From positions 1 to 64,000 of IMG/VR virus record IMGVR_UViG_3300017963_000253: a stretch of 64,000 nt of DNA; one strand, 5' to 3'. Shown in pieces: positions 7,779 to 58,847 of the stretch. The stretch comes from a virus. Below the pieces are notes generated by a model. That model had not been told where the DNA came from. It saw only the letters and a list, made by a program, of their open reading frames with translations, and made no database searches. Positions within the stretch are counted from its first letter, which is position 1. Each line of letters starts with the position of its first letter. Position numbers and translations under genes: made by a program.

Positions 7779-10130
7779 ATGACAGTTCGCAGATTCGGAC
7801 CAGTACAGGGCGCTGGAGTGGCTTTGGAGGAAGAGCAGGGAGACCGCCAAATCATCCCCGCGCCGCTCGGGGTCACCCTCATGGTGGGGGAGTTTCCCAA
7901 GGGTCCGGTTGCCACTCCGGGGTTCCCCGCCGGGAAGATCGATTACAGGAAGCGTTACGGGAAGCGGAGGTTGGAGAACTCCGAAGCCCCGACCGCTGCT
8001 TTCGACTTCTACAAGCTGGGGCGTGGGACGGGGGAGTTGATCCCCTGGCGTGTGACCGCGGGGGACGAGGCGAAGGCTTGGATGTACCTCTACACCCGGC
8101 AGGGGAGCGCGGCGTCTCCTGCTTCCGGAAGGAAGATCCTGGGACGTCTCTTCGCCAAGAACGGTGGGATCTGGGGCGGGCAACGGGACGTCCACGTGGA
8201 CGAGATCACCGGAGCCGGGGACCTGACGGAGACCTCCCTGGACACCGGGGACACGATGATCGAGAACGAGTGGGCGGGTGGGACCCTTCAGCTGAAGAAG
8301 GTCAGCACCAAGACCTACCGGATACTCGGGAATACCGCCGCCGGGGTAGTTCAGCTCGAGGCGGACCAGACGGTCCTCACTGACTGGAACGCCGGGGTCG
8401 GGACACCCGCGAACCGCTACGTCCTCTCCCGAGAGAACGTGGATCGCCTCGGGACGGACCAACACCTCGCGGTGGAGGTACGGGACGGGATCGAAAACCC
8501 CAGCACGGAGTTCGGGATCTACGTCTACGAGGACAACGCGCTGGTCAAGCGCTGGGAGAACCTGAACACAGATCCCACGAAGGCGAACTACTGGGAGAAG
8601 GTGATCAACGACGACAAGGGGAACTTCTGGGTGGAGGCGGAGGACGACTACGTGGGGGACAAGACGGTGGCGACGGTCCGTCCCGCCAACTTCTACGGGG
8701 TCTCCAAGACCCTGACCTCCTTGACTCTGACCCTCCCGGATCCGGACGTGACTATCGACTCCCCGGGGGCGGCGGATCCGACGGTGGCAATTGGTTCCCT
8801 CGGTTCCCTCGTCCTCTCCCAGGTGATCACCGGGACGGTGGAGAACGGCGGGGCGGACATCCGCTGGACCACTACCCTCGGTCCCCTGGAGGTGGTGCAG
8901 GCGGCTTTCACCGGGGTGGCGACGGACCTCGGGGAGGAACTCCTCTCCGTGACCGTGACCAACGGGGGAACCGCTCTCTCGGACGGGGACAAGATCGTCA
9001 TCGACGTCAACGTCATGGTTCCGGACGAGGCGAAGGGTGGGAAGGTCTGGCCGGACAAGGTCAACGAGCCAAACCTCTCCTTCCCGATCGACAGCAACAC
9101 CCGGACGAGCGTCTCAGTCCGGACCGGCGTGGACCTGACGGACGGCGGAAGCATCTCAGCCGGGGAGGAGTTCATGCTCCAGTACCGGCAGGAGTTCGGG
9201 GGCGGTCACAACGGATCCGCGGTCACGGACTCGGACTACCTGGCGGCGTTCGACGCGGTGACCTCCACCATCAACAAGCTCTTCGGGAAGAACAAGGGCC
9301 TGGTGAAGATGGCGGTCCCGGGGGTCACCTCCTCCGTAGTGGTGAAGGCGGGCTTGGAGTACGCCGCGGCGCGGAACTACCAGTTCGGTTACGAGATCCC
9401 GGCCTCCATCCTCGCGGAGGCGGAGGCGGTGGACCACGTCAACTCCACGATCGGTCGCTCGGACTACGGGTTCACCTACTTCCCGAGCTTCGGTTCGGTC
9501 CTGGACCCGGACGCAACTCCGGGGGCGACGGACGTCCCGCTGAAGCAGCAGACGCTCCTCGGGATGATCCTGGGGCGGCACGCCCTGACCGCCTACAACT
9601 TCGACGGGTATCACAAGGCCCCGGCGGACATCGAGACCACCCTCCCGGACGTCCTGGAGCTGACGACCGGGGACGAGGAGACGGCGGTCGCCCTGAACGA
9701 GGAGGTCCTGAACCCGCAGGGCTGCAACGTGGTGAAGTTCCGCCAGGGTGTGGTCATTGTCTTCGGGGATCGGACCACCTCCCCGACCGCGGAGTGGAAG
9801 TGGCTGCATCAGCGTTCCCAGATGAGCCACTACGAGAACCTCCTCCGGGAGAACTACGATTGGATCGTCTTCGCCATCAACGACCGGACCGCCTGGGAGC
9901 GGGTCGGTTCCTCGATCCGGGAGTACTTCTTCGCGGAGTGGGTGAAGGGCGCTCTTCGCGGGGAGACCTTCGAGAAGGCCTTCTCCCTGAAGATCGACGA
10001 GGAGAACAACACGGACGCGACGGCGGCGGCGGGGGACCTGAACGCGGAGATCCGCCTCAGACTCGCGGAGACCGTGGAGCGGTTCAAGATCGTGATCGGG
10101 AAGGCGGGCATCTTCGACAGCGTCGAGTAG
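7779..10130 (+). CDS. contractile tail sheath protein
   Basis: 783 aa; C-terminal HKAPA...LNPQGCNVV..FRQG.VIVFGDRT...WIVFAIND...ENNT...GDLNAEIRL...VERFKI is the sheath C-terminal domain. Confidence 0.93.
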   Translation: MTVRRFGPVQGAGVALEEEQGDRQIIPAPLGVTLMVGEFPKGPVATPGFPAGKIDYRKRYGKRRLENSEAPTAAFDFYKLGRGTGELIPWRVTAGDEAKAWMYLYTRQGSAASPASGRKILGRLFAKNGGIWGGQRDVHVDEITGAGDLTETSLDTGDTMIENEWAGGTLQLKKVSTKTYRILGNTAAGVVQLEADQTVLTDWNAGVGTPANRYVLSRENVDRLGTDQHLAVEVRDGIENPSTEFGIYVYEDNALVKRWENLNTDPTKANYWEKVINDDKGNFWVEAEDDYVGDKTVATVRPANFYGVSKTLTSLTLTLPDPDVTIDSPGAADPTVAIGSLGSLVLSQVITGTVENGGADIRWTTTLGPLEVVQAAFTGVATDLGEELLSVTVTNGGTALSDGDKIVIDVNVMVPDEAKGGKVWPDKVNEPNLSFPIDSNTRTSVSVRTGVDLTDGGSISAGEEFMLQYRQEFGGGHNGSAVTDSDYLAAFDAVTSTINKLFGKNKGLVKMAVPGVTSSVVVKAGLEYAAARNYQFGYEIPASILAEAEAVDHVNSTIGRSDYGFTYFPSFGSVLDPDATPGATDVPLKQQTLLGMILGRHALTAYNFDGYHKAPADIETTLPDVLELTTGDEETAVALNEEVLNPQGCNVVKFRQGVVIVFGDRTTSPTAEWKWLHQRSQMSHYENLLRENYDWIVFAINDRTAWERVGSSIREYFFAEWVKGALRGETFEKAFSLKIDEENNTDATAAAGDLNAEIRLRLAETVERFKIVIGKAGIFDSVE

Positions 10131-38303: not shown

Positions 38304-38615
38304 ATGGATATCGAAAAGGCGTTGACCCCTTCTGAGACCTGGGACCTGTTGAAGGCCGGGAAGCTCTACATGGACTTCGAGGGCGACGTTCCCCTCCACG
38401 TTTGGAGCGTGGAGAACGACCGCTTCTTCCGTTACCCCGGGGAGCGGGTCTACGTCGAGAGCGAGGACGGGTGGAAGACCCTTTGGGTCAGGCAAAAGGT
38501 GAGGTCGATCTGCAGAGGTGCCAGCGGAGACGGGGTTGTCTTGAACTTCAAAAACCACAACGGAGCCTCCGGGTGGTACCCGTGGCAGAACGTGCGGCTC
38601 GAGGTGGGAAAGTGA
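38304..38615 (+). CDS. hypothetical protein
   Basis: 103 aa ORF, GTGA overlap with next gene. Confidence 0.6.
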   Translation: MDIEKALTPSETWDLLKAGKLYMDFEGDVPLHVWSVENDRFFRYPGERVYVESEDGWKTLWVRQKVRSICRGASGDGVVLNFKNHNGASGWYPWQNVRLEVGK

Positions 38616-39319
38616 AGTATATCGGGTATATACGCGTATCGACGCTAGACCAAGCCCGGACGGGCGTCTCCCTCGCGGACCAGGAGGAGAAGATCCGTCA
38701 GTACGTGGCGCTCGCGGACGGGGAACTCGTGGACGTTATCCAGGACGGGGGGCGGAGCGGGAAGGACCTCGACCGGGAAGGGGTCCAGGAGGCGTTCTCC
38801 CGGGTCCTGAACGGGGAGGCGGACGTCCTAGTGGTCTACGCCATCGACCGCCTCTCTCGTTCCGCTCTGGACCTCCTGCAGCTGGTCTCGAAGCTTAGGG
38901 ACGGGAAGCGGGGGTTCGCTTCCGTCCGGGAGCAGATGGACTCAACTACGCCCCACGGACGGTTCACGATGACGATCCTCGCGGCGGTCGCGGAGATGGA
39001 GCGGGAGATGATTCGCTCCCGCTGCCGCGACGCCTCCGCGCGCTGCGTTCGGGACGGGCGGGTCTGGGGGAAGGTCCCCTTCGGCTACCAGAGGGACCGG
39101 GGTGGGAAGCGCCTGATCGAGGACCCCGTCGAGATGGAGGTCCTCCGCGGGATCCTGTCTCTCCGGGACGCGGGGTACAGCTACGCGAAGATCGCCGCCC
39201 ACCTGAACCGTCGCGGTCGGGGACCGAAGATCGGCGCGCGCTGGTACCCCTCCTCCGTTCGCTCCGTCGTACTGACCCACCAAAAGTACCGCGAGGTTCG
39301 TAGCTTACGAGAGGGTTGA
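38612..39319 (+). CDS. serine recombinase (resolvase family with short C-terminal DNA-binding part)
   Basis: YIRVST.DQ, D.G.SGK..DR.G, VY.IDRLSRS, AE.ERE.I..R, PFGY motifs. Confidence 0.92.
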   Translation: MKYIGYIRVSTLDQARTGVSLADQEEKIRQYVALADGELVDVIQDGGRSGKDLDREGVQEAFSRVLNGEADVLVVYAIDRLSRSALDLLQLVSKLRDGKRGFASVREQMDSTTPHGRFTMTILAAVAEMEREMIRSRCRDASARCVRDGRVWGKVPFGYQRDRGGKRLIEDPVEMEVLRGILSLRDAGYSYAKIAAHLNRRGRGPKIGARWYPSSVRSVVLTHQKYREVRSLREG

Positions 39320-40736: not shown

Positions 40737-41684
40737 ATGAAGCCTGAAGAGACGCTCGTCCTCGGGGCCGGTCCCGTGGGCTTGATTGCGGCGGAGATCC
40801 TGGGGGCGCGCTACGTGGTGGGGAAGGATCCCGGGGGTTCCAAGACCCTTCGCAACCTGGCTCCAACCTACCTCTGGTGGACCCCCTCTGTGGAGCGCTT
40901 CCTCCTGGATCTTGGGCTGAATTGGGGATCTCGCTGGGTTAAGTTTGGGTGGCTTTGCTCGGGTGAGGTTAGGGACGCCCCCTCCGAGGCGGACTTGAAG
41001 AGCTATTACCGGCGTAGCCGCGGGGGCGTCTCCGGGAAAGTACCCTCCTCCGTGGCCTCCTCCGGGAAGCCGGGGGAGATCGAGGTCTCCAGCGTTCCCC
41101 TGGAGCAGATAATCGACCTTCTCTTGGAGAGGAACCTGATTTACGAGATGGAGGTGGAGTCTATCTTCCACTTGGGAACGGTGATCCGGTTCAATCAATC
41201 CCCGACGGTGGAGTTCCCCGCTACTACGTTGGTCAACACGCTCCCGAGGTCGGTCTTCTGTGAGATGATATTCCCGAAGATGGAGTTCCCACCGGAGGCA
41301 AAGGCGGGTTGGAAGACCTTCGTAAGTGGGGACGCCTACACTAGTGCGTTGGACCGGGTATGGGAGGAGCGGGAGCTTGACTTCCTCTACGTAGCGGACG
41401 AATCGCTCCCGTTCGAGCGCGTGAAGTTCCTGCATGATTCCTGGAAGAACGAGAGGTTCGTCTACGAGTTCAACGCGGTGTCAGTCCCGCCGGAATTCCT
41501 GGATCTGGTCCATGGGAAGCAGGTTTACTCCGCGCCGCTGCAGATCTCGGAGGTCTCCACCCGTCCCAGGGTGGAGGAGTTGGGGGGTAGGGTCCGGAAC
41601 GTCGGGCGGTTGGCGCGGTGGGATCACTCTATCCGCCTTCACGACGTGATAGAGGAACTCTATCGCTGGAGGGATGTACGATGA
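40737..41684 (+). CDS. FAD-dependent oxidoreductase (UDP-galactopyranose mutase/HemY superfamily-like)
   Basis: VLGAGPVGL.AA Rossmann motif, LVNTLP, C-terminal GRLARW. Confidence 0.7.
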   Translation: MKPEETLVLGAGPVGLIAAEILGARYVVGKDPGGSKTLRNLAPTYLWWTPSVERFLLDLGLNWGSRWVKFGWLCSGEVRDAPSEADLKSYYRRSRGGVSGKVPSSVASSGKPGEIEVSSVPLEQIIDLLLERNLIYEMEVESIFHLGTVIRFNQSPTVEFPATTLVNTLPRSVFCEMIFPKMEFPPEAKAGWKTFVSGDAYTSALDRVWEERELDFLYVADESLPFERVKFLHDSWKNERFVYEFNAVSVPPEFLDLVHGKQVYSAPLQISEVSTRPRVEELGGRVRNVGRLARWDHSIRLHDVIEELYRWRDVR

Positions 41685-42628
41685 AGGACGCGTTGGAGGA
41701 GATCTTCGAGACCCAGACCGCGTTCAACCGGAGGTTCTTCGCGGATCGTGGCTTGGACCTGGCGGAACTCTCCGGAGCGGACCGGGCGCAGTGGACGAAG
41801 CAATTCGTCCTCCACGTGGAGGGGGAGCTTCACGAGCTACTCCGGGAGACGAACTGGAAGATGCATCGCCTGGAGGGGAAGCGGGTCAACCGGGGGAACG
41901 TTCTGGAGGAGTGGACGGACTGCTTCAAGTTCCTGCTCGGGCTCGCCAACGTCTGGGGGTTCTCCGCCTCCGAGGTCCTGGAGGAGTTCCGCCGGAAGTC
42001 CCGGGTGGTGGACTACCGTTACGGGATGGAGCAGCGTCTCCGGGCGATCTCTCCGGGGAGTCCGGTGGTGGCGGTGGACATCGACGGGGTTCTGAACGAC
42101 TACCCAGGTTGCTTCCTCCGCTGGGTTTCCCCCCCAGCTGAAGAACCGTTCGAGACGCTTGCGGCGCTCCGGGAGAAGGTGGGTCCCAAGCGGTACCGGG
42201 AGATCAAGGACGAGTACCGGAAGAGCGGGGCGAAGCGGGAGCAGGGGGTTCGACCCGGTGCGCGGGAGATGCTCAACGGACTCCGCGCCGCCGGTTACTC
42301 CGTGGTCCTACTATCCAAGCGTCCCTACTGGCGGTTCTACCGGATCTACGCGGATACGCTGGAGTGGCTGGAGCGGAACGGGCTCCGCTGCGACGCGGTC
42401 CTCTTCCACCGGGAGAAGCACCGGAAGATCCTGGAGGACTTCCCTAACCTTATCGCGATGGTGGAGGACGACCCCGCGGTGGCGCGGGAGATCCTCTCCA
42501 TCGGGGTGGAGGTCTTCTTGGTAGAGGGGGAGCTGAACGTAGGGGCGGAGGTACCCGGGGCAAACAGAATTTCCAACGTCGCGGACGTCGTGACGGAACT
42601 GGAGGAGATTGGGTATGAGTCACGATAG
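41681..42628 (+). CDS. dimeric dUTPase/MazG-type dNTP pyrophosphatase fused to HAD nucleotidase
   Basis: ELHELL.E.NWKMH...VLEEWTD.FKFLL; then VAVDIDGVL...LSKR...K...MVEDDP (HAD motifs I-IV). Confidence 0.85.
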   Translation: MKDALEEIFETQTAFNRRFFADRGLDLAELSGADRAQWTKQFVLHVEGELHELLRETNWKMHRLEGKRVNRGNVLEEWTDCFKFLLGLANVWGFSASEVLEEFRRKSRVVDYRYGMEQRLRAISPGSPVVAVDIDGVLNDYPGCFLRWVSPPAEEPFETLAALREKVGPKRYREIKDEYRKSGAKREQGVRPGAREMLNGLRAAGYSVVLLSKRPYWRFYRIYADTLEWLERNGLRCDAVLFHREKHRKILEDFPNLIAMVEDDPAVAREILSIGVEVFLVEGELNVGAEVPGANRISNVADVVTELEEIGYESR

Positions 42629-43736
42629 AGTAGAGGAGATCCGGAAGTTGCGACGCCTGATGGGAACCGCTCCAGAGGCGGAGCCTGAGTTCGAGACGAA
42701 GTTCTACCGCGGGGTAGAGGGGATCCGCGTGAAGCTGGTAGATGGACCTCGGAACCCCTACCGGGCGATGTACGCGATGGGGGTCTCTACCTGGGGGCAT
42801 ATTCACTCTTTAGCTACTGACCGTTGGGAGGATACACCGCCGGAGGCCCGGGAGGCGGTAGTCCGGGCGGTCCTAGGGTTTAACGCCCTCCCGCTAGCGA
42901 TGGAGGCCCCGAAGTTTACGTTCGAGGTCTATAACCTTACGCGGTGGAGCTTCGATCAGATCGCCCGCGCGCGGATCGGGGCGGTCTTCGCTTCCCTCGG
43001 GACGCGGGATAACAACCATTTGGGGATCCCCTTCCGGATGCACGAGGCGACTTGGAGGAACGAGTCGAAGCGAGGTCTCTTTGTGGGCAACGCCAAGAAC
43101 GCCAAGGACGCGTACCGGACGTTGGTGGAGAGTGGGAGGGGGAGTTGGCAGGAGGCGCGGACGTTCCTCCCGATCTCGGTGGTCCATCGCTTCACGATGT
43201 CGATCAACTTCCTTGCCCTCCGGGGGATGTGCGCCCGGAGGATGACCTTCTCGGAGGCGGAGGACACTGTTGCGGTGGCGTGGCTCCTTCGAGACCGTTT
43301 GATGAAGGCGGACGCCTACCCGCTTCTCGCCGCCCATCTTCGACCCGCTTGTGACGGCGCGGGGACCTGCCGGTATCACAAGGCTCACACGATTTCAGAG
43401 GCCTTTGGGTGTCTTTTCAAGAGCTGTGGTCGACACCCGGTGAAGAGCGCCCCCGGGAACCCGGATTTCGATTACGAGTATGCGGACTTTAACGTCAGTT
43501 GTTCGGACCGAAAGACGATTCAGGATCAGCTGCAGATTTCGATCCCGGAGCGGACCATGGATCCTGACAAGGTGGAACTTACTTCCCGCGACCGTTTCCT
43601 CTTAGGATTTCAGGCTCAGAATGAGGAGGAGTTTGAAGATTGGAGGTGGTACGCGCAGGCGGAGAGAGGGGTGGATGCAAACCCGTTCCCCCTCCCGGAT
43701 TCCGGGGCTGCAGTTGAACCGGTGGACCTCCCGTGA
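42615..43736 (+). CDS. thyX: divergent flavin-dependent thymidylate synthase homolog
   Basis: E.PKFTF.V..LTR...DQIARAR, QEARTFLP, C-terminal P.C....TC...CGR; signature residues altered. Confidence 0.8.
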   Translation: MSHDRVEEIRKLRRLMGTAPEAEPEFETKFYRGVEGIRVKLVDGPRNPYRAMYAMGVSTWGHIHSLATDRWEDTPPEAREAVVRAVLGFNALPLAMEAPKFTFEVYNLTRWSFDQIARARIGAVFASLGTRDNNHLGIPFRMHEATWRNESKRGLFVGNAKNAKDAYRTLVESGRGSWQEARTFLPISVVHRFTMSINFLALRGMCARRMTFSEAEDTVAVAWLLRDRLMKADAYPLLAAHLRPACDGAGTCRYHKAHTISEAFGCLFKSCGRHPVKSAPGNPDFDYEYADFNVSCSDRKTIQDQLQISIPERTMDPDKVELTSRDRFLLGFQAQNEEEFEDWRWYAQAERGVDANPFPLPDSGAAVEPVDLP

Positions 43737-44269
43737 TCCGCGCGCTGGAGGGGGTGAACTTCGTCGGGAAAAGTACGGCTACTAATCTTCTCTCTGTGGA
43801 GTTTGGTTTTCCTGTTTATTCGGATCCTGGAAGGCATGGATTGTTTGAAGATTGGTTAGTTCCGTTTTCTCCGCGTGAATGGCAGGTTCAAGGGACTCAA
43901 AATGCATTAGCTAGTACAGTGTTTTCCAACTGGGTAGACGTAATTTTGGATCGCTGGATCCTCTCGAATTTGGTTCACGATGAGGAGCGGGGATTGAAAA
44001 TCCCGGACCGCGTTATCTGGAAAATTTTGGAGTTGACTGATAATGCGAGGGTGTACCTCCTACATGCGGATCTTTCGGTGGTGTTGGAGCGAGCGGAGGA
44101 GCGTGGTGTGGTAGTAACTGATTCGCTCCGGGATACGATATTCAAGCGGGCAGAAGCCTTTCTTCGTTGGGCCACCGTTTTGGATTCTTACTATGGGGTC
44201 GAAGTTTATCTCGTTAACGCAAACTGGAGTAGTGGAGAGGTTTTCGATGCGATATATCGTAACTGGTAG
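43733..44269 (+). CDS. dNMP (thymidylate-like) kinase
   Basis: ALEGVNFVGKST P-loop, VILDRWILSNLV, LERAEER lid. Confidence 0.85.
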   Translation: MIRALEGVNFVGKSTATNLLSVEFGFPVYSDPGRHGLFEDWLVPFSPREWQVQGTQNALASTVFSNWVDVILDRWILSNLVHDEERGLKIPDRVIWKILELTDNARVYLLHADLSVVLERAEERGVVVTDSLRDTIFKRAEAFLRWATVLDSYYGVEVYLVNANWSSGEVFDAIYRNW

Positions 44270-45254
44270 CAGTGGGATGCTGGGTCATGTCTTGGACGAG
44301 ACCCTTCGGTCCCTGGGTCACGAGCGGTTGATCCCGAGCGGTCGGAACTGGAAGAGCCCTTCCACCGGGGAGATAGAGCCGGACTTCCGGGACCCTGTAT
44401 ATCTTCGTTGGCTGGAGGGGGCGAACGTGGACGTCTTCTTCCACGCCGGGGCGTTGGTGGGGACGACGCGATGTGAGGCGCACGCGGAGGATGCCTGGAG
44501 CTGCAACGTCGAGGCGGTCCGGAGGATCGCGGATATCCTCTCCCGGCGACGGATCTACACCGTCTTCTACGCCACTGCTGCGGAGATGGAGCCGGGGGAG
44601 TATGGGTTGGACCGGCCTATCGACGTGGGACGGACCCCCCGGAACCCGCTTACCCGTTACGGGATTACGAAGTTGGCGGGGCGGGAGTTGATGGAGGTCC
44701 TTTTCCGGGAGCGTGGTGTGGAGGAACTCCTTCTCCAGGTCTATCCTAGCTTTGGCTTCGGAGGGGCGCGGGACGGGAACTCCTGTGTGGCCGACCTTCT
44801 GAAGTGTGCCCTCGGGGTTTATGACCGCAGACCCTTCCTCCCGCTCGCCCCGGAGAACATCAAGGAGGTCACACCGCACTCCTACATCGCGGAACTTTCC
44901 GTCCGCGCCGCGGAGCGACGTCTCTCTGGGAAGATTCCTATCGCGTCTGGGGTCTGGACCCGTTACGCGGAGATCGTGGAGATGGTCGAGGATGTCACCG
45001 GGGAGAAGTTGGACCCGGAGTGGCGTGCGGACCTGGACTACAAGGGGGACTTCTTACATGTACGGGAGGACGTCTTCTCCTTGGCAGAGGATCTGGGGGT
45101 TCCGGTCCTGACGCGGGTGGAGATCAAAGCGGCTCTCGTGGATGAGATGAACGGGATCCTGAACGCGGAGGGTGCCGGGGTGATGGCGAATCACGAGTGG
45201 CGGTTCGCGGAGAAGCTTGTGGAGGCGTTCCCGGGTTGGGAGGGACGTAGATGA
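44247..45254 (+). CDS. NAD-dependent nucleotide-sugar epimerase/reductase (extended SDR)
   Basis: IVTGSSGMLG, FHAGALVG, NV, catalytic YGITK. Confidence 0.85.
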   Translation: MRYIVTGSSGMLGHVLDETLRSLGHERLIPSGRNWKSPSTGEIEPDFRDPVYLRWLEGANVDVFFHAGALVGTTRCEAHAEDAWSCNVEAVRRIADILSRRRIYTVFYATAAEMEPGEYGLDRPIDVGRTPRNPLTRYGITKLAGRELMEVLFRERGVEELLLQVYPSFGFGGARDGNSCVADLLKCALGVYDRRPFLPLAPENIKEVTPHSYIAELSVRAAERRLSGKIPIASGVWTRYAEIVEMVEDVTGEKLDPEWRADLDYKGDFLHVREDVFSLAEDLGVPVLTRVEIKAALVDEMNGILNAEGAGVMANHEWRFAEKLVEAFPGWEGRR

Positions 45255-45934
45255 TTAGATATTTGAATAAATTAGTTGAAGTATTGACTAATTTGGATAA
45301 CGAAGAGCGTATTGAGGCTTTGAATTTGGTAAAGACGGAGCTTCATAAAATTTCTCCTTTCAAGGCGGAGCCTGTGGATTGTGTGCTTTGGGAGCGTACT
45401 TCTCGTGTAATTGCTAACGATTACAATCCTAATGCTGTTGCTCCTCCGGAAATGGAGTTACTTCGGATTTCGATAGAGTCGGATGGATTCACCCAACCTG
45501 TTGTGACGGATTTCAGTGACGAGTCTGAGGTGTTTGTGGTGGTGGATGGATTTCACCGTAATCGAGTGGCTCGAGAGTGTGAATCTGTGGTGGATAAGTT
45601 GGGTGGTTACCTTCCGATAGTTCAGATACGTGCTGATCAGAAGGGGCGTTCAGATAGAATTGCTTCGACGATTCGTCACAATCGCGCAAGGGGTAAGCAT
45701 CAAATCGCAAAGATGTCTGATATTGTGATTGAATTGAAGCGGAGAAATTGGTCTGACAAGAAGATAGGTCGTGAACTTGGGATGGATCCTGATGAGGTGT
45801 TGCGATTGGCTCAGATTACTGGGTTAGCAGAAGCGTTTCGGGACAAGGAGTTCACTCGGGCCTGGGAGGCAGATTTGAAGTTGGATGACGAGTTGATCGA
45901 GGGATTGGTCGAAGAGGTCGACTTGGATGAGTAG
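45251..45934 (+). CDS. ibrB: ParB-like N-terminal domain protein (IbrB-like)
   Basis: EPVDCVLW, ANDYNPNAVAPPEM.LL..SI..DGFTQP, VVDGFHR, STIRHNRARGKH, LGMD.DEVLRL.Q. Confidence 0.85.
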   Translation: MIRYLNKLVEVLTNLDNEERIEALNLVKTELHKISPFKAEPVDCVLWERTSRVIANDYNPNAVAPPEMELLRISIESDGFTQPVVTDFSDESEVFVVVDGFHRNRVARECESVVDKLGGYLPIVQIRADQKGRSDRIASTIRHNRARGKHQIAKMSDIVIELKRRNWSDKKIGRELGMDPDEVLRLAQITGLAEAFRDKEFTRAWEADLKLDDELIEGLVEEVDLDE

Positions 45935-46343
45935 GTTGGAAACGATAGATTTTGAGAGAGTTCAACCTGGTAGAGTTTACTTTCATTACTTGGATTTGGA
46001 GGAGTATCACGCCGGGTTTTGGAAGTCTGTTTACAATCGGGATATTAAGGCGCGCTTGACTGCTACTTCGGTTAAGATTTTGCGGGATCGGGATATTTTT
46101 AGTGGTGCAGTTCAACGTGTGATAAAGGAGTGGCCAAACTCTTGTCTAGCGGAATTTACTGCTCCTGGAAATCACAGGGCTTGGTTGGGTCAGGCTGCGT
46201 GCTGTCTCGTTGCTGGTGTTCCGGAGAACCTGACTCGGTTAGCGTGGTGGAAGTTAACTGAGGTCCAAAGAATCGCCGCTAACGATATTGCGGAGATTGC
46301 TATTCGAGATTGGAGGATAAGACGTGTTGAAACGAAGACTTGA
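45927..46343 (+). CDS. hypothetical protein of the IbrAB module
   Basis: Overlaps both neighbours, same low GC; WPNSC...N.RAWLGQAAC...W..L motif. Confidence 0.7.
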   Translation: MSRLETIDFERVQPGRVYFHYLDLEEYHAGFWKSVYNRDIKARLTATSVKILRDRDIFSGAVQRVIKEWPNSCLAEFTAPGNHRAWLGQAACCLVAGVPENLTRLAWWKLTEVQRIAANDIAEIAIRDWRIRRVETKT

Positions 46344-47556
46344 GATCAACGTCTTGGAGGCAGCTCGGGAACGGATAGCGCGGGTTTTCGACGATTTTGA
46401 GAGAATTTATGTGGCGTTTAGTGGGGGTAAGGACTCAACTGTGATGATGCACTTGGCGTGTGAAGAGGCACGCCGTCGGGAGTGTAGAGTTGGGATCTTA
46501 ATGGTGGATTTGGAAGGTTACTTTGAAATCACGGTGAAACACTGCGTTGAAATGTTTGAAATGTACGCGGATGTGATAGAGCCGTTTTGGATTTGTCTTC
46601 CGATTCACCTTCGTAATGCAGTGAGTGTGTTTGAGCCGTTTTGGGTTTGTTGGGATCCTAAAGCAGAAGGGGCTTGGGTTCGACGACCTCCAAAGGAAGC
46701 GATTGTTGATTCAGGGTACTTTCCTTTTTTCCGTGAAGGTATGGAGTTTGAGGAATTTGTGCCGCTATTTGGGGATTGGTACGCAGATGGGAAGCGGTGT
46801 GCGTGTCTTGTGGGTATCCGCACGGACGAGAGTTTGAATCGCTTTCGAACAATTGCGATTTCCCAAAAGGAGAGATTTGAGGGTCTTTCTTGGACGACGA
46901 AGATCACCAAGGATCTCTATAACGTATACCCTATTTACGATTGGTCTGTTGAAGATATTTGGGTATATCACGCGAAGTTTGGAGATAAGCCTCACAATCG
47001 GCTGTACGATTTGATGCACCAAGCGGGTATGACGCCTTCCCAGATGCGAATTTGTCAACCTTATGGAGACGATCAAAGGCGTAACTTGTGGCTATTTCAC
47101 ATTATCGAACCTAAGACTTGGGCCAGGATTGTTGCACGTGTGAATGGTGCTAATGGGGGAGCACTTTATATTCAGGAGTGGGGAAATATTAATGGTTATC
47201 GAAAGATAACTAAACCTGTTGGGCATACTTGGAGAAGTTTCTCAGAACTCCTCGTGGCTTCGATGCCAGAAAAGTCAAAGATTCACTATCGTAACAAGAT
47301 CCTTCTTTTTGAAAAGTGGTGGACAGAGCGTGGTTACCCTGAAGGGATTCCTGATGAGGCGGATCCACGAATGGAGGCTAATCGCAAAGCTCCAAGTTGG
47401 CGGAGAGTATGTAAATCGTTACTTAGAAACGATTATTGGTGTAAGGGACTTGGATTTAGTCAGCAGAAGAGTGCTGCCTACAAGGCTTACTTGGAGTTGA
47501 TGAAGCGGCGGAAGAAATCTTGGGGTGTCAGTGATGTTAAGTTGGGGTTTGTATGA
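46324..47556 (+). CDS. ibrA: PAPS reductase/PP-loop family protein with DUF3440 (IbrA-like)
   Basis: FSGGKDS, LVGIRTDESLNR, YPIYDW...DIW, MRICQPYG, RVNGAN, PSWRR.CK.LL.ND.WC. Confidence 0.88.
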   Translation: MLKRRLEINVLEAARERIARVFDDFERIYVAFSGGKDSTVMMHLACEEARRRECRVGILMVDLEGYFEITVKHCVEMFEMYADVIEPFWICLPIHLRNAVSVFEPFWVCWDPKAEGAWVRRPPKEAIVDSGYFPFFREGMEFEEFVPLFGDWYADGKRCACLVGIRTDESLNRFRTIAISQKERFEGLSWTTKITKDLYNVYPIYDWSVEDIWVYHAKFGDKPHNRLYDLMHQAGMTPSQMRICQPYGDDQRRNLWLFHIIEPKTWARIVARVNGANGGALYIQEWGNINGYRKITKPVGHTWRSFSELLVASMPEKSKIHYRNKILLFEKWWTERGYPEGIPDEADPRMEANRKAPSWRRVCKSLLRNDYWCKGLGFSQQKSAAYKAYLELMKRRKKSWGVSDVKLGFV

Positions 47557-50480
47557 GAAGTCCACGTGTTAAGAGACTTCAAGAGAACGGGTTTCGATCT
47601 GGAGCTTCTCTTGTAGCTGATGCGGACACTCAGGCGTTTGCGGAGGATCAAGTAGAGCACCGCGCGCAGTACCAGCAGACCGCTGCGTCCGTGGAGGAGG
47701 TCAAGGACAAGCGGAGCGTTGAGGACCTCCAGGACGCTACGGACTTCGACGACTTGAAGAAGGCGGCTTGGACCTTCAATCCGGGGACGGAGTACTACCA
47801 CGGGTGGTCGGAGGGAAACGACATAATCTTACTTCGGAGGGATCCGGAGACGGGGCGGCGGATCCGGGAGATTCACCCGTTTGAGTGGTACTTCTACGTC
47901 ACTCGGGAGGACTATGAGAGTGTACCCAAGGATTCCTGGGATTGGCTCTGTAGTTGTGGAACGCTCGCGGAGAAGGTGGTTCCGGACGAGAACTATCCTG
48001 ATTTGTACTATCGGGTTTACGTAAAGAACCCTGTTCCGAAGTTGGATAAGAAGAGGATCTTTTCGAATGTCGGAGATCCGGATCGTGGTGCGAATTGGGC
48101 GATTCCTTTCTATCGAGGTGAGAGTTCAAGATCTATCAGATGGCCACGGGACCGGGAGAAGTGGACGAGAGTTCACAAAGTGATCAATTGGTGTGAGCGA
48201 AAGGGAGTGACACCGTTGGAGGCGGATCTTACGCCGAAGCAGCGGTTTCTCACGGATTACGATATAACGATCACTCCGAAATTTCGGATAGGGTTCTTCG
48301 ATATTGAGACGGATGACTCTGTTGGAGGGTTCGATAAGAAGGAGCAGTGTCGAATTCTCTCAATAGCTTGGGAGGGGGACCGCTTCGAGGAAGATCCAAC
48401 TGATTGTGGATTCTTGTTGCTACAGGAGGAGACGGACGAGGCTGAGAAGAAGTTGCTTTTGGAGTTCAAGCGTAGTTGCGTCAATAAATACGACGTATTG
48501 TCGGCTTGGAATGGGACTGGGTTTGACTTTCCTGTTCTATTCTATCGGTTTTGGAAGCACAAAATTCGAATCGACTGGCGTTATCACCTCTTTGCAGATC
48601 CGCTTCCTATCTTCAAGCGGCACTACGTTAGAGCCGGAGGGGATGCGATTTCCTACTCCCTTGATTCTATCGGGGAGAAGGTTCTGAAGATGAATAAGAT
48701 CGACTGGAGGACGATCTTTCGGAAACGTCACCCTGGGGTGGTCCCGAAGTTCATCAACCTCTACCGGCACGACCCGGAGCTTTTGGAGGAGTACAACCGT
48801 CTGGACGCCACAATCCTCCGGAAGCTGGAGGCGTTCACCGGGTTCGTGGCGATCGAGCAGATCTTCTGCCGGATTGCGAACGGGTTCCCGAACGATTTTC
48901 AGATTTCGACTAAGGTGGACCAGCTCTTACTGAAGAAGGGGTTCAAGGAGGGGCATCACTTCCCGACGAGATACTGGTCTCCTGGTAAGCCGGAGAAGTA
49001 CGAAGGAGCTTACGTATTTCCGCCGGTTCGCGGGATGCACCGGAACGTTGCCGCGTTTGACTTCAAGAGCCTGTACCCCTCGATGATCTCCAGTTTCAAT
49101 ATCTCCCCGGAGACAATCGTGAAGGAGGAGAACAGGGCGGATTTTGAGGAGAAGGACCTTTGCAGGATCCCGGAACTTGATTTGGAGCGGGAGGACGGGG
49201 ACGGGGAGATAGAGGTCTTGCAGAAGGGTGGTTCCACCTTCAGGTTGGACAAGCAGGGGTACCTCTCGCAGATGTTTGAGCGTACTTTGATGAGGAGGAA
49301 GAAGTACCAGGACCTTCAGAAGGAGCGTTTGAAGGTCACCGGGACGACTCAGGACGATCTCTTCCTCCTCTACTATCGCTTGGCTTACTCCTTCAAGCGG
49401 TTGGGGTTATCCTTCTACGGAGATATCGGGAACTCCAGGTCCAGGTTCTACGACACTGAGGTGGCGGAGGCGATCACTCTCTCTGGTCAGTTCTTTATCA
49501 AGGAAACAGCTAAATACGCCCAAGAGTGCGGAATGATTCCACTTTATGGGGACACCGATTCCATCTACGTCCAGTTAGCACCTACTGAACAGGAGTGGGA
49601 TTCGCAGGAGGAGCGGATCGCGGAGTTGAACGAAATTGGGGAACGCTTCGTGGAGTATTGTCAGGAGCGTTATCTGAAGATCCTCAAGGAGCACAATTGC
49701 AACCTGGATTGGAACCTTATCTTCCTGGAGTTCGAGGACACCTACGACCGGATTTTCTTCATCGTCAAGAAGCGGTACGCCGGGAGGATGCTCTCCCACA
49801 AGGGGGGGAAGACGGACCACGTGGAGGTCAAGGGTCTCGAGGTGATGCGGAGCGATTGCTCCGGGAAAACGCGGGCGCTTCAGCAAGCGGTGTTGGACGG
49901 AATTCTCATGACGGGGATGACCGCGGAGCAGCTGGAGCGGGAACTGATAGAGCCGGAGTTCAACAGGTGCGTCTCCGGTGAACTTACCGTGGACGAGGTC
50001 TGCATCGGGAAGGGGATCTCCAAGGAGCCGGAGAAGTACAAGACGACCCCGCTCCACGTGGCTTTGGCACAGGAGATCAAGGACCACGGGCGGGAGTTCT
50101 TCGTTGGGATGAAGGTGGAGTACGTGGTCACCGGGGTGAAGCCGAAGCTCCAGGGCGTGACGCGAGAGGAGTACGAGGACTCGAACGGGGAGTTGGTTTA
50201 CGACCCGGAGTACTACTGGGATCGGGTGGTCTACCCCGCCTCGATGAGGATCCTGGAGGTCTGTTACCCGGAGAAGGACTGGACTCGCTGGAAGGTGGCG
50301 GACAATCGGAGGCGGCGGAAATTGGTGGACCGCTACAAGATCTGGTTAGCTGACCCGAAGCGGGTAGAGAAGGCGCTCCTCCAGATCCGGGAGAATAAGC
50401 GTGGACTCCTAGGACCGCCGGAACTGGCGGAACTCCGGACCGCGCCCCGCGTCCGCATCTTGGATAGGAGTGAGGGATGA
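47553..50480 (+). CDS. family B DNA polymerase with 3'-5' exonuclease
   Basis: FDIETD, WNGTGFDFP, YNRLD; DFKSLYPS, variant KRLGLSFYG, YGDTDS, KKRYAG, KGLE..RSD. Confidence 0.95.
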   Translation: MRSPRVKRLQENGFRSGASLVADADTQAFAEDQVEHRAQYQQTAASVEEVKDKRSVEDLQDATDFDDLKKAAWTFNPGTEYYHGWSEGNDIILLRRDPETGRRIREIHPFEWYFYVTREDYESVPKDSWDWLCSCGTLAEKVVPDENYPDLYYRVYVKNPVPKLDKKRIFSNVGDPDRGANWAIPFYRGESSRSIRWPRDREKWTRVHKVINWCERKGVTPLEADLTPKQRFLTDYDITITPKFRIGFFDIETDDSVGGFDKKEQCRILSIAWEGDRFEEDPTDCGFLLLQEETDEAEKKLLLEFKRSCVNKYDVLSAWNGTGFDFPVLFYRFWKHKIRIDWRYHLFADPLPIFKRHYVRAGGDAISYSLDSIGEKVLKMNKIDWRTIFRKRHPGVVPKFINLYRHDPELLEEYNRLDATILRKLEAFTGFVAIEQIFCRIANGFPNDFQISTKVDQLLLKKGFKEGHHFPTRYWSPGKPEKYEGAYVFPPVRGMHRNVAAFDFKSLYPSMISSFNISPETIVKEENRADFEEKDLCRIPELDLEREDGDGEIEVLQKGGSTFRLDKQGYLSQMFERTLMRRKKYQDLQKERLKVTGTTQDDLFLLYYRLAYSFKRLGLSFYGDIGNSRSRFYDTEVAEAITLSGQFFIKETAKYAQECGMIPLYGDTDSIYVQLAPTEQEWDSQEERIAELNEIGERFVEYCQERYLKILKEHNCNLDWNLIFLEFEDTYDRIFFIVKKRYAGRMLSHKGGKTDHVEVKGLEVMRSDCSGKTRALQQAVLDGILMTGMTAEQLERELIEPEFNRCVSGELTVDEVCIGKGISKEPEKYKTTPLHVALAQEIKDHGREFFVGMKVEYVVTGVKPKLQGVTREEYEDSNGELVYDPEYYWDRVVYPASMRILEVCYPEKDWTRWKVADNRRRRKLVDRYKIWLADPKRVEKALLQIRENKRGLLGPPELAELRTAPRVRILDRSEG

Positions 50481-57600: not shown

Positions 57601-57993
57601 ATGGACGCTTCTGTGAATAAGGTCATTTTGATCGGGCGGCTGGGAACGGACCCGGAACTCCGGTACTTTGACTCCGGGAAGGCGCTCTGTAACTTCTCCC
57701 TGGCGACTAACCGGAGTTGGAAGGACCGAAACGGGGAGAGTCAGGAGCGGACGGACTGGCACCGTATCGTAACCTGGTCGCGACTTGCGGAGAACTGCTC
57801 CAAGTACCTGGAGAAGGGAAGGAAGGTCTTCGTGGAGGGGCGTCTGGAGACCCGGAACTGGGAGGACGAGGAGGGGAAGCGTCACTACATCACGGAGGTG
57901 GTGGCGAGCAATGTACTCTTTCTCGGCGGCGGGAGCGTTAACGAGGGACCTCCTCCGACGCAGGAGGAATTGGACGAGGACCTTCCCTTTTGA
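57601..57993 (+). CDS. ssb: single-stranded DNA-binding protein
   Basis: [17 protein letters not shown]...FSLAT...TDWHRIV...KG..VFVEGRL.TR.W; ends DEDLPF. Confidence 0.95.
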
Positions 57994-58847
57994 GACTGAA
58001 GCAATCCATTTGCCCGGGGTACGTTTGGGAGGACCCGGAGGGTCTGCACCTGATCGCTTGCGGGGACTTCCGGGACCCGGGCCTGCTTCGCGGGCTCCTG
58101 AAGCGGTTCGGGGAGGAGGAGTTCCAACTCACGCTCGCGGATCCTCCCTACGCGGTGGCATCGGAGAAGCAGCGGATCCAGTTGGAGGGGCGTAAGGACC
58201 AGTTCCTGACGGAGAAGTGGGACCTCCTGACACCGGAGGAACTGAGAGACCTCCTCGTTCGTCTGTGTCTGGAGGTCACGCGGGTTACTCCCGCCGGGAA
58301 CGTCTGGATCTGGACCTCCGACTGGTACGTCTCGGAGCTGAAGTGGGAGCTGAAGCGTCTCGGACTCCGGGTCTGGCCCACCTACGTCTGGTGCAAGTCC
58401 AACCCACCTTGGCAGGTCCGGAAGTCGAACCCCGCCTCCGCCTGCGAGTTCCTGGTGATGGCCAGCAAGAAGGGGAACTATTTTGAACTAGACGCCCTCC
58501 CGAAGCAGCGAAACTGGTTCGTTGCCTCCGCGTCCGGGGAGTTGGATTACTCCCCTGCGGTCTCCCCCTACTGGGTGGAGCGCCCGGTGGTTCACGCCGC
58601 GGAGCGCCTCCGGAAGGTGGGGGAGAAGGAGTTCCTGAATCGCGCCCAGAAGCCGCTAGACGTGACGGAGGCCCTTGTTCGCGCCGGGTGTCCGGAGGGT
58701 GGTTTGCTCCTGGACCTCTGCGGGGGGACCGGAACAGGGTTACTCGCAGCGGAGCGGACGGGTCGCCGCTGCGTCTACGTGGAGAAGGACCCAACGCAGG
58801 TGCGGGCGGCGGGACGCCGCCTCCTGGAGGAGCGGAGGAATGGTTAA
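57990..58847 (+). CDS. DNA amino-methyltransferase (m6A/m4C, beta class), orphan
   Basis: ADPPY precedes QKP and [12 protein letters not shown]-binding motif. Confidence 0.88.

Follow-up and report, generated by a model that had tools for sequence, protein, structure and literature searches.

A ThyX-fold protein with a rewired active site that probably makes an unusual DNA pyrimidine in an uncultured marine phage

Thymidine replacement in phages SPO1 and SP8 depends on a set of enzymes comprising a dTTPase-dUTPase, a dTMP nucleotidase, a dUMP hydroxymethylase and a 5-hydroxymethyl-dUMP (hmdUMP) kinase, and the corresponding set in T4 is gp56, gp42 and gp1. To our knowledge, every known pre-replicative pyrimidine change in phages, namely 5-hydroxymethylcytosine (hmC) in T4, 5-hydroxymethyluracil (hmU) in SPO1, 5-methylcytosine (5mC) in XP12 and the hmU-based hypermodifications, begins with an enzyme of the ThyA fold. 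Here we analysed a ThyX-fold paralogue with a rewired active-site signature, encoded at positions 42615-43736 (+ strand) of the IMG/VR record IMGVR_UViG_3300017963_000253, which derives from an uncultured marine-sediment phage. The window, that is, the whole stretch of DNA analysed, is the initial 64 kb of this 75-kb record, which is about 74% complete, and all of its long open reading frames (ORFs) lie on the + strand. As judged from its sequence, the ThyX-like protein probably makes an unusual DNA pyrimidine. We put the probability at about 0.5 that it is a flavin-dependent enzyme modifying C5 of a uracil nucleotide, with a product other than plain dTMP.

Two kinds of described ThyX-fold enzyme are available for comparison. 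The flavin-dependent thymidylate synthases (FDTS or ThyX; Thermotoga maritima TM0449, Mycobacterium tuberculosis ThyX; PF02511) share the fold and the phage-replication-module context with the window protein. PolB, the UMP/dUMP C5-methylase of polyoxin synthesis in Streptomyces cacaoi (PDB 4P5A/4P5B), is like the window protein a ThyX-fold paralogue, and was recruited beyond housekeeping dTMP synthesis. However, PolB is still a C5-methylase according to its PDB title and belongs to an antibiotic gene cluster instead of a phage replication module; it was compared here by fold and description, not by motif residues.

The initial annotation had called the product of this ORF a ThyX homolog, which is correct, as the Pfam match, the profile match to solved structures, the structure model and the fold search all agree. 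The ORF encodes 373 aa from the ATG at 42615, the start chosen in that annotation and also the start of the database protein P0151. It remains open from the TTG at 42609, and residue numbers are counted from this TTG (375 aa) throughout. Pfam Thy1 (PF02511) matched with an E-value of 2.8e-9 and 37.5 bits against a cut-off of 24.8, which places the protein in the ThyX fold, and the NCBIfam ThyX equivalog TIGR02170 reached 18.9 bits, below its cut-off of 87.9. When the single protein was compared with PDB sequences by phmmer no match was returned; the family profile alone reached the ThyX chains (HMMER, E 7e-12). The AlphaFold2 (AF2) model, built on 30 relatives, had a predicted local distance difference test (pLDDT) score of 89.6 and a predicted template-modelling score (pTM) of 0.90, and the best solved-structure matches of this model in Foldseek were all ThyX or PolB (E ~1e-8, target TM-score 0.62-0.75), with PolB among the top fold matches. 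On this sequence and model evidence we are confident that ORF 42615-43736 encodes a ThyX-fold protein, with homology far beyond chance. An exhaustive HMMER search retrieved 169 cluster representatives at E<1e-3 (96 at E<1e-10), and the databases label the family 'thymidylate synthase ThyX'. Meanwhile, tblastn against 50,697 cultured-phage records yielded no close relative, so that no cultured phage in this collection carries the clade; weak matches at 24-29% identity were obtained in nine cultured-phage records, all annotated ThyX or thymidylate synthase. Our literature search found no description of the rewired ThyX clade.

The catalytic residues of canonical ThyX have been assigned in detail. 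H53, positioned by Y91 and N85, forms pi-stacks with the folate pteridine when the ternary complex is oxidised and with the isoalloxazine ring once the flavin is reduced (PMC11940539). S88 and Y91 are conserved and have been proposed to assist the SN2 (bimolecular nucleophilic substitution) attack of dUMP on the flavin N5-carbinolamine; the Y91A variant transfers methylene more than 100-fold more slowly, and mutation of Y91 slows flavin oxidation ~1000-fold (PMC8316439; PMC11940539). R174 activates dUMP (PMC8316439).

Three independent alignments were used to place these residues in the window protein: HMMER to M. tuberculosis ThyX, HMMER to T. maritima chain 4gtf, and MAFFT with the canonical ThyX of sister phages. 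They bore out the alignment previously made by eye, and together with the structure model they confirmed the fold and the residue losses. Direct translation of 42888-43010 gives LPLAMEAPKFTFEVYNLTRWSFDQIARARIGAVFASLGTRD and locates both altered motifs exactly where they had been reported, with LPLAMEA at 42888-42908 (+ strand), the counterpart of T. maritima H53-E-T-P-F-E58-H59, and RARIGAVFASLGTRD at 42966-43010, inside the active-site loop DQIARARIGAVFASLGTRDN (42954-43013, + strand).

In LPLAMEA the folate-stacking His is indeed lost. H53 is replaced by L94, and Leu occupies this position in at least 90% of the family, so the conserved His of ThyX is absent; H59 is replaced by A100, and E58 is kept as the invariant E99. 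Within the loop, Q75, R78 and R80 correspond to Q117, R120 and R122, and H79, S88 and Y91 are replaced by A121, G131 and D134/N135, with G124 as a one-residue insertion. The ThyX motif RHRxxSxxxxSxR(Y/F) is therefore not found, and the window protein reads R-A-R-I-G-A-V-F-A-S-L-G-T-R-D instead. The earlier statement that this motif had lost its His, its conserved Ser residues and its Tyr holds for H79, S88 and Y91, but the last Arg of the motif is kept, as R133 matches R90 once the G124 insertion is allowed for, and the loss of S83 is not diagnostic because this Ser is not universal in canonical ThyX, being Ala in the canonical paralogues of sister phages.

The arginines that bind and activate dUMP are present. 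R147 is R184 (43158-43160, + strand) and R174 is R211, which is followed by MTFS and E216 (43239-43256, + strand); both arginines are invariant (alignments A1 and A3). The scaffold motifs FTF (residues 103-105) and QEARTFLP (residues 181-188) are kept, as had been seen before. E216 is a clade-specific invariant Glu aligned with A179, and the preceding S215 is aligned with H178. When canonical and rewired sequences were aligned together by MAFFT, E99, R112, R120, R122, Y169, R184 and R211 were invariant columns, and R133 was nearly so. Compared with ThyX/FDTS, the window protein thus has the same E58, Arg of the SR motif, R78, R80, R90, R147 and R174, whereas H53, H59, H79, S88 and Y91 are replaced and the loop is one residue longer; in all, four histidines, S88 and Y91 are lost. 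It further differs in the new conserved residues D116, D134-N135 and E216 and in a C-terminal extension of ~130 aa with three co-varying Cys. Because of the roles given to these residues in the cited ThyX papers, the ThyX-like protein would thus have kept the substrate-activating half of the active site and lost the half for folate and methylene transfer.

The replacements are themselves conserved. Close relatives share the consensus ALPLALE.P.FTF...SR.AFDQIAR.RIG..F.S.G.RDN ... WQ.AR..LP ... RR..F.EQEDTVA, in which R81, E99, R112, R122, R184, R211 and E216 are invariant. Among the substituted positions, L94, D116, G131 and D134 are nearly invariant, and the signature DQIARxRIGxxFxSxGxRDN occurs in at least 37 cluster representatives. 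In a tree of 114 sequences the DQ...RDN clade comprised 46 rows with 99% Shimodaira-Hasegawa-like (SH-like) support, and it represents at least 46 clusters at 50% identity. It is nested in a wider viral radiation with the loop THQLVRTRIGAGF.Q.GGRDNDW, and canonical ThyX falls outside, in a FastTree tree without bootstrap whose deep order is indicative only. Pseudogenisation or decay was considered and rejected on three grounds: an intact ORF, a large family, and conservation at the replaced positions; the sequences argue that the replacements are under selection.

Inteins were found at four sites or more, lying inside or beside the signature loop, in the FDQ motif, and at F|CEQxDT right after R211, and Pfam intein domains are present. 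In P0005, P0010 and P0053 the intein splits F|C-E-Q-x-D-T just after R211. Inteins typically occupy functionally critical motifs, and their position inside the signature motifs argues for an active enzyme. The carriers P0004, P0005, P0010, P0038, P0043, P0053 and P0069 have inteins of ~150-380 aa, some with inserts of homing-endonuclease size.

The C-terminal extension begins with a Cys-rich segment (43350-43427, + strand) in which the family alignments place C248, C254 and C273 in the motif RPxCD..C.YH...FGxLFxxCGR. Across the family the three Cys are jointly present or jointly absent, and a similar Cys motif is found in P0142, a ThyX with a canonical-type loop. A role of the triad as an Fe-S catalytic site was set aside, since one whole subclade lacks it and P0142 has it. 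The same distribution makes a structural metal site more likely, and suggests that it was inherited from the phage ThyX lineage.

Retention of an ordinary ThyX beside the rewired copy is the strongest single argument for a changed function, since two ThyX copies with such different active sites occur within phage genomes of 100 kb. A second, canonical Thy1 protein was identified in 5 of 15 other clade records (G001, G003, G004, G006 and G007) and in three of the five complete genomes. These canonical paralogues score 132-163 bits with Pfam Thy1 and follow the patterns GH..EH and RHR..QES.R[YF]; their motifs read WGHESILEH or SGHEAMIEH, then SHQLVRHRIAAYTQESQRF or THEIVRHRIASYAQESTRY, AREVLPNA, and NLREWRH...R. 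Because a canonical ThyX is retained beside it, the rewired copy would have another role. In the available 75 kb of the present genome no second Thy1 gene was found, and a ThyA-fold gene (PF00303) was found in none of 26 phage records (this genome and 25 related ones). A dCMP deaminase gene is encoded in this genome at 70012-70479, outside the window, and in four relatives; in G001 and G003 the canonical ThyX lies within ~2 kb of the dCMP deaminase gene and far from the cassette described below.

The ThyX-like gene is the third member of a three-gene cassette at 40737-43736, in which the genes for a flavoprotein, a fusion protein and the ThyX-like protein are adjacent and in this order. The flavoprotein (40737-41684, + strand, 315 aa; AF2, Foldseek, ESM Atlas) is of a small flavin adenine dinucleotide (FAD) type with the motifs GAGPVG...GRLARWDH, and belongs to a phage-only family. 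Its predicted fold is that of amine oxidase, UDP-galactopyranose mutase (UGM) and renalase (AF2 pLDDT 82.8, Foldseek E ~1e-10). The fusion (41681-42628, + strand; open from GTG 41618) joins an all-alpha nucleoside triphosphate (NTP) pyrophosphatase domain to a HAD domain. The former is nearest to dimeric dUTPases (Pfam dUTPase_2, 28.3 bits), with PDB profile matches to the Leishmania and Campylobacter dUTPases at E ~1e-5; the latter has an intact DIDGVL (DxDG) motif and is NT5C-like at a sub-threshold 21 bits. The end of the fusion overlaps the start of the ThyX-like gene by 14 nt. On the other side, the stop of the ThyX-like gene overlaps (GTGA) the start of a P-loop deoxynucleoside monophosphate (dNMP) kinase of thymidylate type (43733-44269, + strand; PHROG 761 thymidylate kinase, E 6e-10; Pfam Thymidylate_kin, 20 bits, below cut-off), so that the gene overlaps its neighbours on both sides. 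This kinase would be the dedicated dNMP kinase of the module, and a small kinase-like gene recurs in distant relatives. It is followed by an extended short-chain dehydrogenase/reductase (SDR) of the NAD-dependent epimerase/RmlD-like type (44193-45254, + strand; Pfam Epimerase, 51 bits), which recurs in nine clade loci. The order in the window is thus flavoprotein, fusion, ThyX-like gene, kinase, SDR, an insert of lower GC content, and a family B DNA polymerase (47553-50480, + strand; Pfam DNA_pol_B, 155 bits) downstream of the nucleotide module.

The cassette is widely kept. Among 17 related IMG/VR loci the fusion adjoins the ThyX-like gene in 16, and wherever the upstream sequence is long enough, a flavoprotein of the same family stands ahead of the fusion. 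Of the 67 loci of the sister 'GGRDNDW' group, 51 extend 1.2 kb or more upstream, and 38 of these 51 show the flavoprotein, fusion and ThyX-like genes in this order, down to ~25-30% identity. Loci with other ThyX loop types are mostly without the cassette. Distant members have family A polymerases and an extra small kinase gene. As the cassette stands beside a family B polymerase here and beside family A polymerases in distant carriers (L011 10718-12703 and L056 11269-13383), it appears to travel independently of polymerase type. The predicted complex of the flavoprotein with the ThyX-like protein scored 0.00 against a mark of 0.32, a result that counts neither way.

Compared with the SPO1/SP8 and T4 systems, the window module would match the logical set of pyrophosphatase, nucleotidase, base-modifying enzyme and dNMP kinase near a polymerase. 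The difference lies in the key enzyme. SPO1/SP8 and T4 use a ThyA-fold hydroxymethylase, whereas this genome has no ThyA-fold gene and its candidate enzyme is of the ThyX fold. The window module also adds two redox proteins, the flavoprotein and the SDR. Some relatives keep a canonical ThyX, so any replacement may be only partial.

From the observed fold, residues, conservation, paralogy and linkage we infer the substrate, the product and the following order of steps. The NTP-pyrophosphatase domain would supply the monophosphate, and this domain and the HAD nucleotidase fused to it may jointly deplete the pool of canonical dTTP and dTMP as well. The ThyX-like enzyme would then put a C5 substituent other than plain methyl on the base, most likely that of dUMP. 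Hydroxymethylation would be a reasonable leading guess, by what seems the most economical chemistry: a one-carbon unit would be transferred and the exocyclic-methylene intermediate captured instead of reduced, yielding 5-hydroxymethyl-dUMP or a similar handle. The adjacent kinase would pass this product towards the triphosphate for the phage polymerase, and the amine-oxidase/UGM-fold flavoprotein and the SDR may supply redox or tailoring steps. Speculatively, with the folate-stacking His lost, the neighbouring flavoprotein could supply or process a formaldehyde-type unit. T. maritima ThyX is able to form dTMP from free formaldehyde without folate (PMC8316439).

A comparable set of genes is present in cultured phages. 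In the Pbunaviruses R12 and F8, which infect Pseudomonas, the DNA polymerase gene has among its neighbours genes for a flavoprotein homologue, a HAD fusion and a ThyX of non-canonical type. The loci lie at 25772-30174 of L092 (phage F8; gp065, gp059 and gp057) and at 1840-6190 of L091 (phage R12; gp30, gp24 and gp22), and the flavoprotein homologues are F8 gp065 (hidden Markov model (HMM) E 2e-11) and R12 gp30 (HMM E 7e-11). Their ThyX reads ..IRSPFEF.. and THQLVRTRTGAYQQETSRA, without H53, H79 and Y91. The DNA of F8 and 14-1 has been reported to contain hypermodified thymidine-derived nucleosides of 362 and 390 Da, which replace roughly one quarter of T; none of the known modification genes is present (PMC12191111, a 2025 preprint). 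The Pbunavirus ThyX differs from the window protein in being much nearer canonical (Pfam 108 bits), and RTR...QQETSRA takes the place of the RDN loop. The fusion has its HAD domain at the N-terminus, and the gene order differs from that of the window. We take the resemblance of the cassettes as a testable lead and not as support.

The changed function proposed in the initial annotation was partly sustained: it is supported by the lost catalytic residues, the conserved replacements, the coexisting canonical ThyX and the cassette, while its example of a dCMP substrate is disfavoured, as discussed below. Several observations weigh against C5 modification to a product other than dTMP. The clade members are known from sequence and predicted structure alone. 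We only infer flavin binding, and the residues at the positions of H79, R165 and H178 differ (R165 and H178 by positional counting in the HMMER alignment). A dUTPase encoded beside ThyX is also what ordinary synthesis of dTMP would show. The rewired gene is the sole thymidylate-synthase-like gene in all 16 sister-group records (9 complete), and two of the five complete clade genomes hold only the rewired copy and no canonical ThyX. Two sister-group loci (L068 and L070) have the cassette yet show a canonical-like ..QQSSRY loop, which makes the association of the cassette with the rewiring a strong but not a strict one. Finally, the Pbunavirus ThyX lies outside the RDN clade on a long branch, and since it is also nearer canonical, the Pbunavirus link is only suggestive. 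Alternatively, the family may be a divergent ThyX lineage that has a remodelled active-site loop but is still a thymidylate synthase. It would perhaps obtain its one-carbon unit or electrons by another route, such as free or channelled formaldehyde, or reduction by the neighbouring flavoprotein in place of direct binding of NADPH and folate. We regard this as a serious alternative, although a doubtful one. It fits the retention of all nucleotide-binding and activating arginines, the dUTPase-type domain directly upstream, the records in which the gene stands alone, and the database name, and the formaldehyde-dependent synthesis of dTMP by T. maritima ThyX offers a precedent (PMC8316439). However, it leaves the canonical ThyX in the same genome (5 of 15 records) without explanation, and the protein has lost S88 and Y91, both of which accelerate methylene transfer even when formaldehyde is the carbon donor. 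Moreover, by our reasoning, substrate or product would be lost to the fused HAD nucleotidase if this is a phosphatase for dUMP/dTMP.

The choice of substrate can be narrowed further. A uracil-type dNMP, most likely dUMP, would be the substrate, in view of the retained R174, R147, R90, R78 and R80, of partner domains that look like dUTPases and dUMP/dTMP nucleotidases, and of a phage-encoded dCMP deaminase, whose product is dUMP. Modification of dCMP (methylation, hydroxymethylation or hydroxylation), with the pyrophosphatase serving as a dCTPase as in the cytosine replacement of T4, would agree with a module layout resembling gp56/gp42/gp1 (dNTPase, modifying enzyme, dNMP kinase) and with a canonical ThyX being present for dTMP. 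The invariant equivalent of R174, however, activates dUMP via N3/O4 and should repel a cytosine ring, and the equivalent of the uracil-ring-binding R90 is retained as well; a dCMP substrate is thus disfavoured, and we consider it quite improbable. Within the uracil-type nucleotides the enzyme might instead act on dTMP, with the oxidised flavin taking a hydride from the methyl group, in effect the final ThyX step run backwards, and the resulting methylene being trapped by water or a different nucleophile, to give 5-hydroxymethyl-dUMP or a derivative without folate. Such a reaction would explain the coexistence with a canonical ThyX supplying dTMP, the loss of folate and methylene-transfer residues alongside the kept R174 equivalent and, by chemical reasoning only, the new conserved acids D134 and E216. 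Yet the ThyX family offers no precedent for it, two complete genomes are without a canonical ThyX (though the host could supply dTMP), and sequence does not discriminate dTMP from dUMP, which makes it unlikely. It is very unlikely indeed that the protein binds nucleotides but has no catalytic activity, acting for instance as a scaffold or regulator in the nucleotide module. The loss of several residues of ThyX catalysis would be accounted for, but the replaced positions are strongly conserved polar residues (D116, D134, N135 and E216) and the arginines for binding do not vary. In addition, these motifs hold inteins at several sites, and inteins have a preference for essential active-site sequences; the family is also large and full length.

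Carried further, C5 modification by the ThyX-like protein would make it the first case in which a flavin-dependent enzyme of the ThyX fold initiates the modification of thymidine before replication. Here dUMP or dTMP would be converted to 5-hydroxymethyl-dUMP or to a bulkier C5-alkyl/alkoxymethyl nucleotide, phosphorylated by the kinase and built into DNA, with a side chain tailored or supplied by the flavoprotein, the HAD domain and the SDR. We advance this extended scheme tentatively. If it is true, modified thymidine can be reached by a second route that does without ThyA and is widespread in uncultured phages, and the Pbunavirus modification has a candidate genetic basis. The conserved rewiring of a ThyX-fold paralogue, its place in a cassette with a second flavoprotein, a kinase and a fusion that would destroy dNTPs, and the frequent presence of a normal ThyX beside it would indicate that DNA base modification can begin with a different enzyme. 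Such a pathway is invisible in current phage annotation because automatic annotation names all these proteins 'ThyX'. Modified DNA affects evasion of restriction and defence, sequencing and phage therapy. The thymidine modification in Pbunaviruses (PMC12191111) makes the question directly testable in culture.

Further observations were made around the cassette. In the ~110-kb relatives L009 (5297-7899) and L010 (at the same place in the gene order), two genes are inserted between the fusion and the ThyX-like genes, one for an aldo-keto reductase that may carry an Fe-S tail and one for a radical-SAM/SPASM protein; the products are possible add-on tailoring enzymes. In the 195-kb provirus-classed record L008, the gene immediately downstream of the ThyX-like one encodes a GIY-YIG/NUMOD3 homing endonuclease (8964-9704), which again suggests that this locus is a target of mobile elements.

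Among the sequencing runs matching the phage no RNA run was listed; the two DNA matches are sediment and seawater metagenomes, which may be the source samples. In the window itself, the insert between the SDR and the polymerase genes (45251-47556) has a GC content of ~0.49-0.55 compared with ~0.60-0.68 elsewhere. It encodes a ParB-like (IbrB-type) protein, a 138-aa protein of no assigned function and a PAPS-reductase/DUF3440 (IbrA-type) protein, and looks recently acquired because its three genes occur in 0 of 17 related loci. Just upstream of the nucleotide module, a serine-recombinase-type integrase/invertase (38402-39319; PHROG 95, E 1e-62) is encoded, and it is ~60% identical to its counterparts in the five nearest relatives. 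In the late part of the replication and repair module, a DNA methyltransferase (PHROG 67, 498) was found at 57990-58847.

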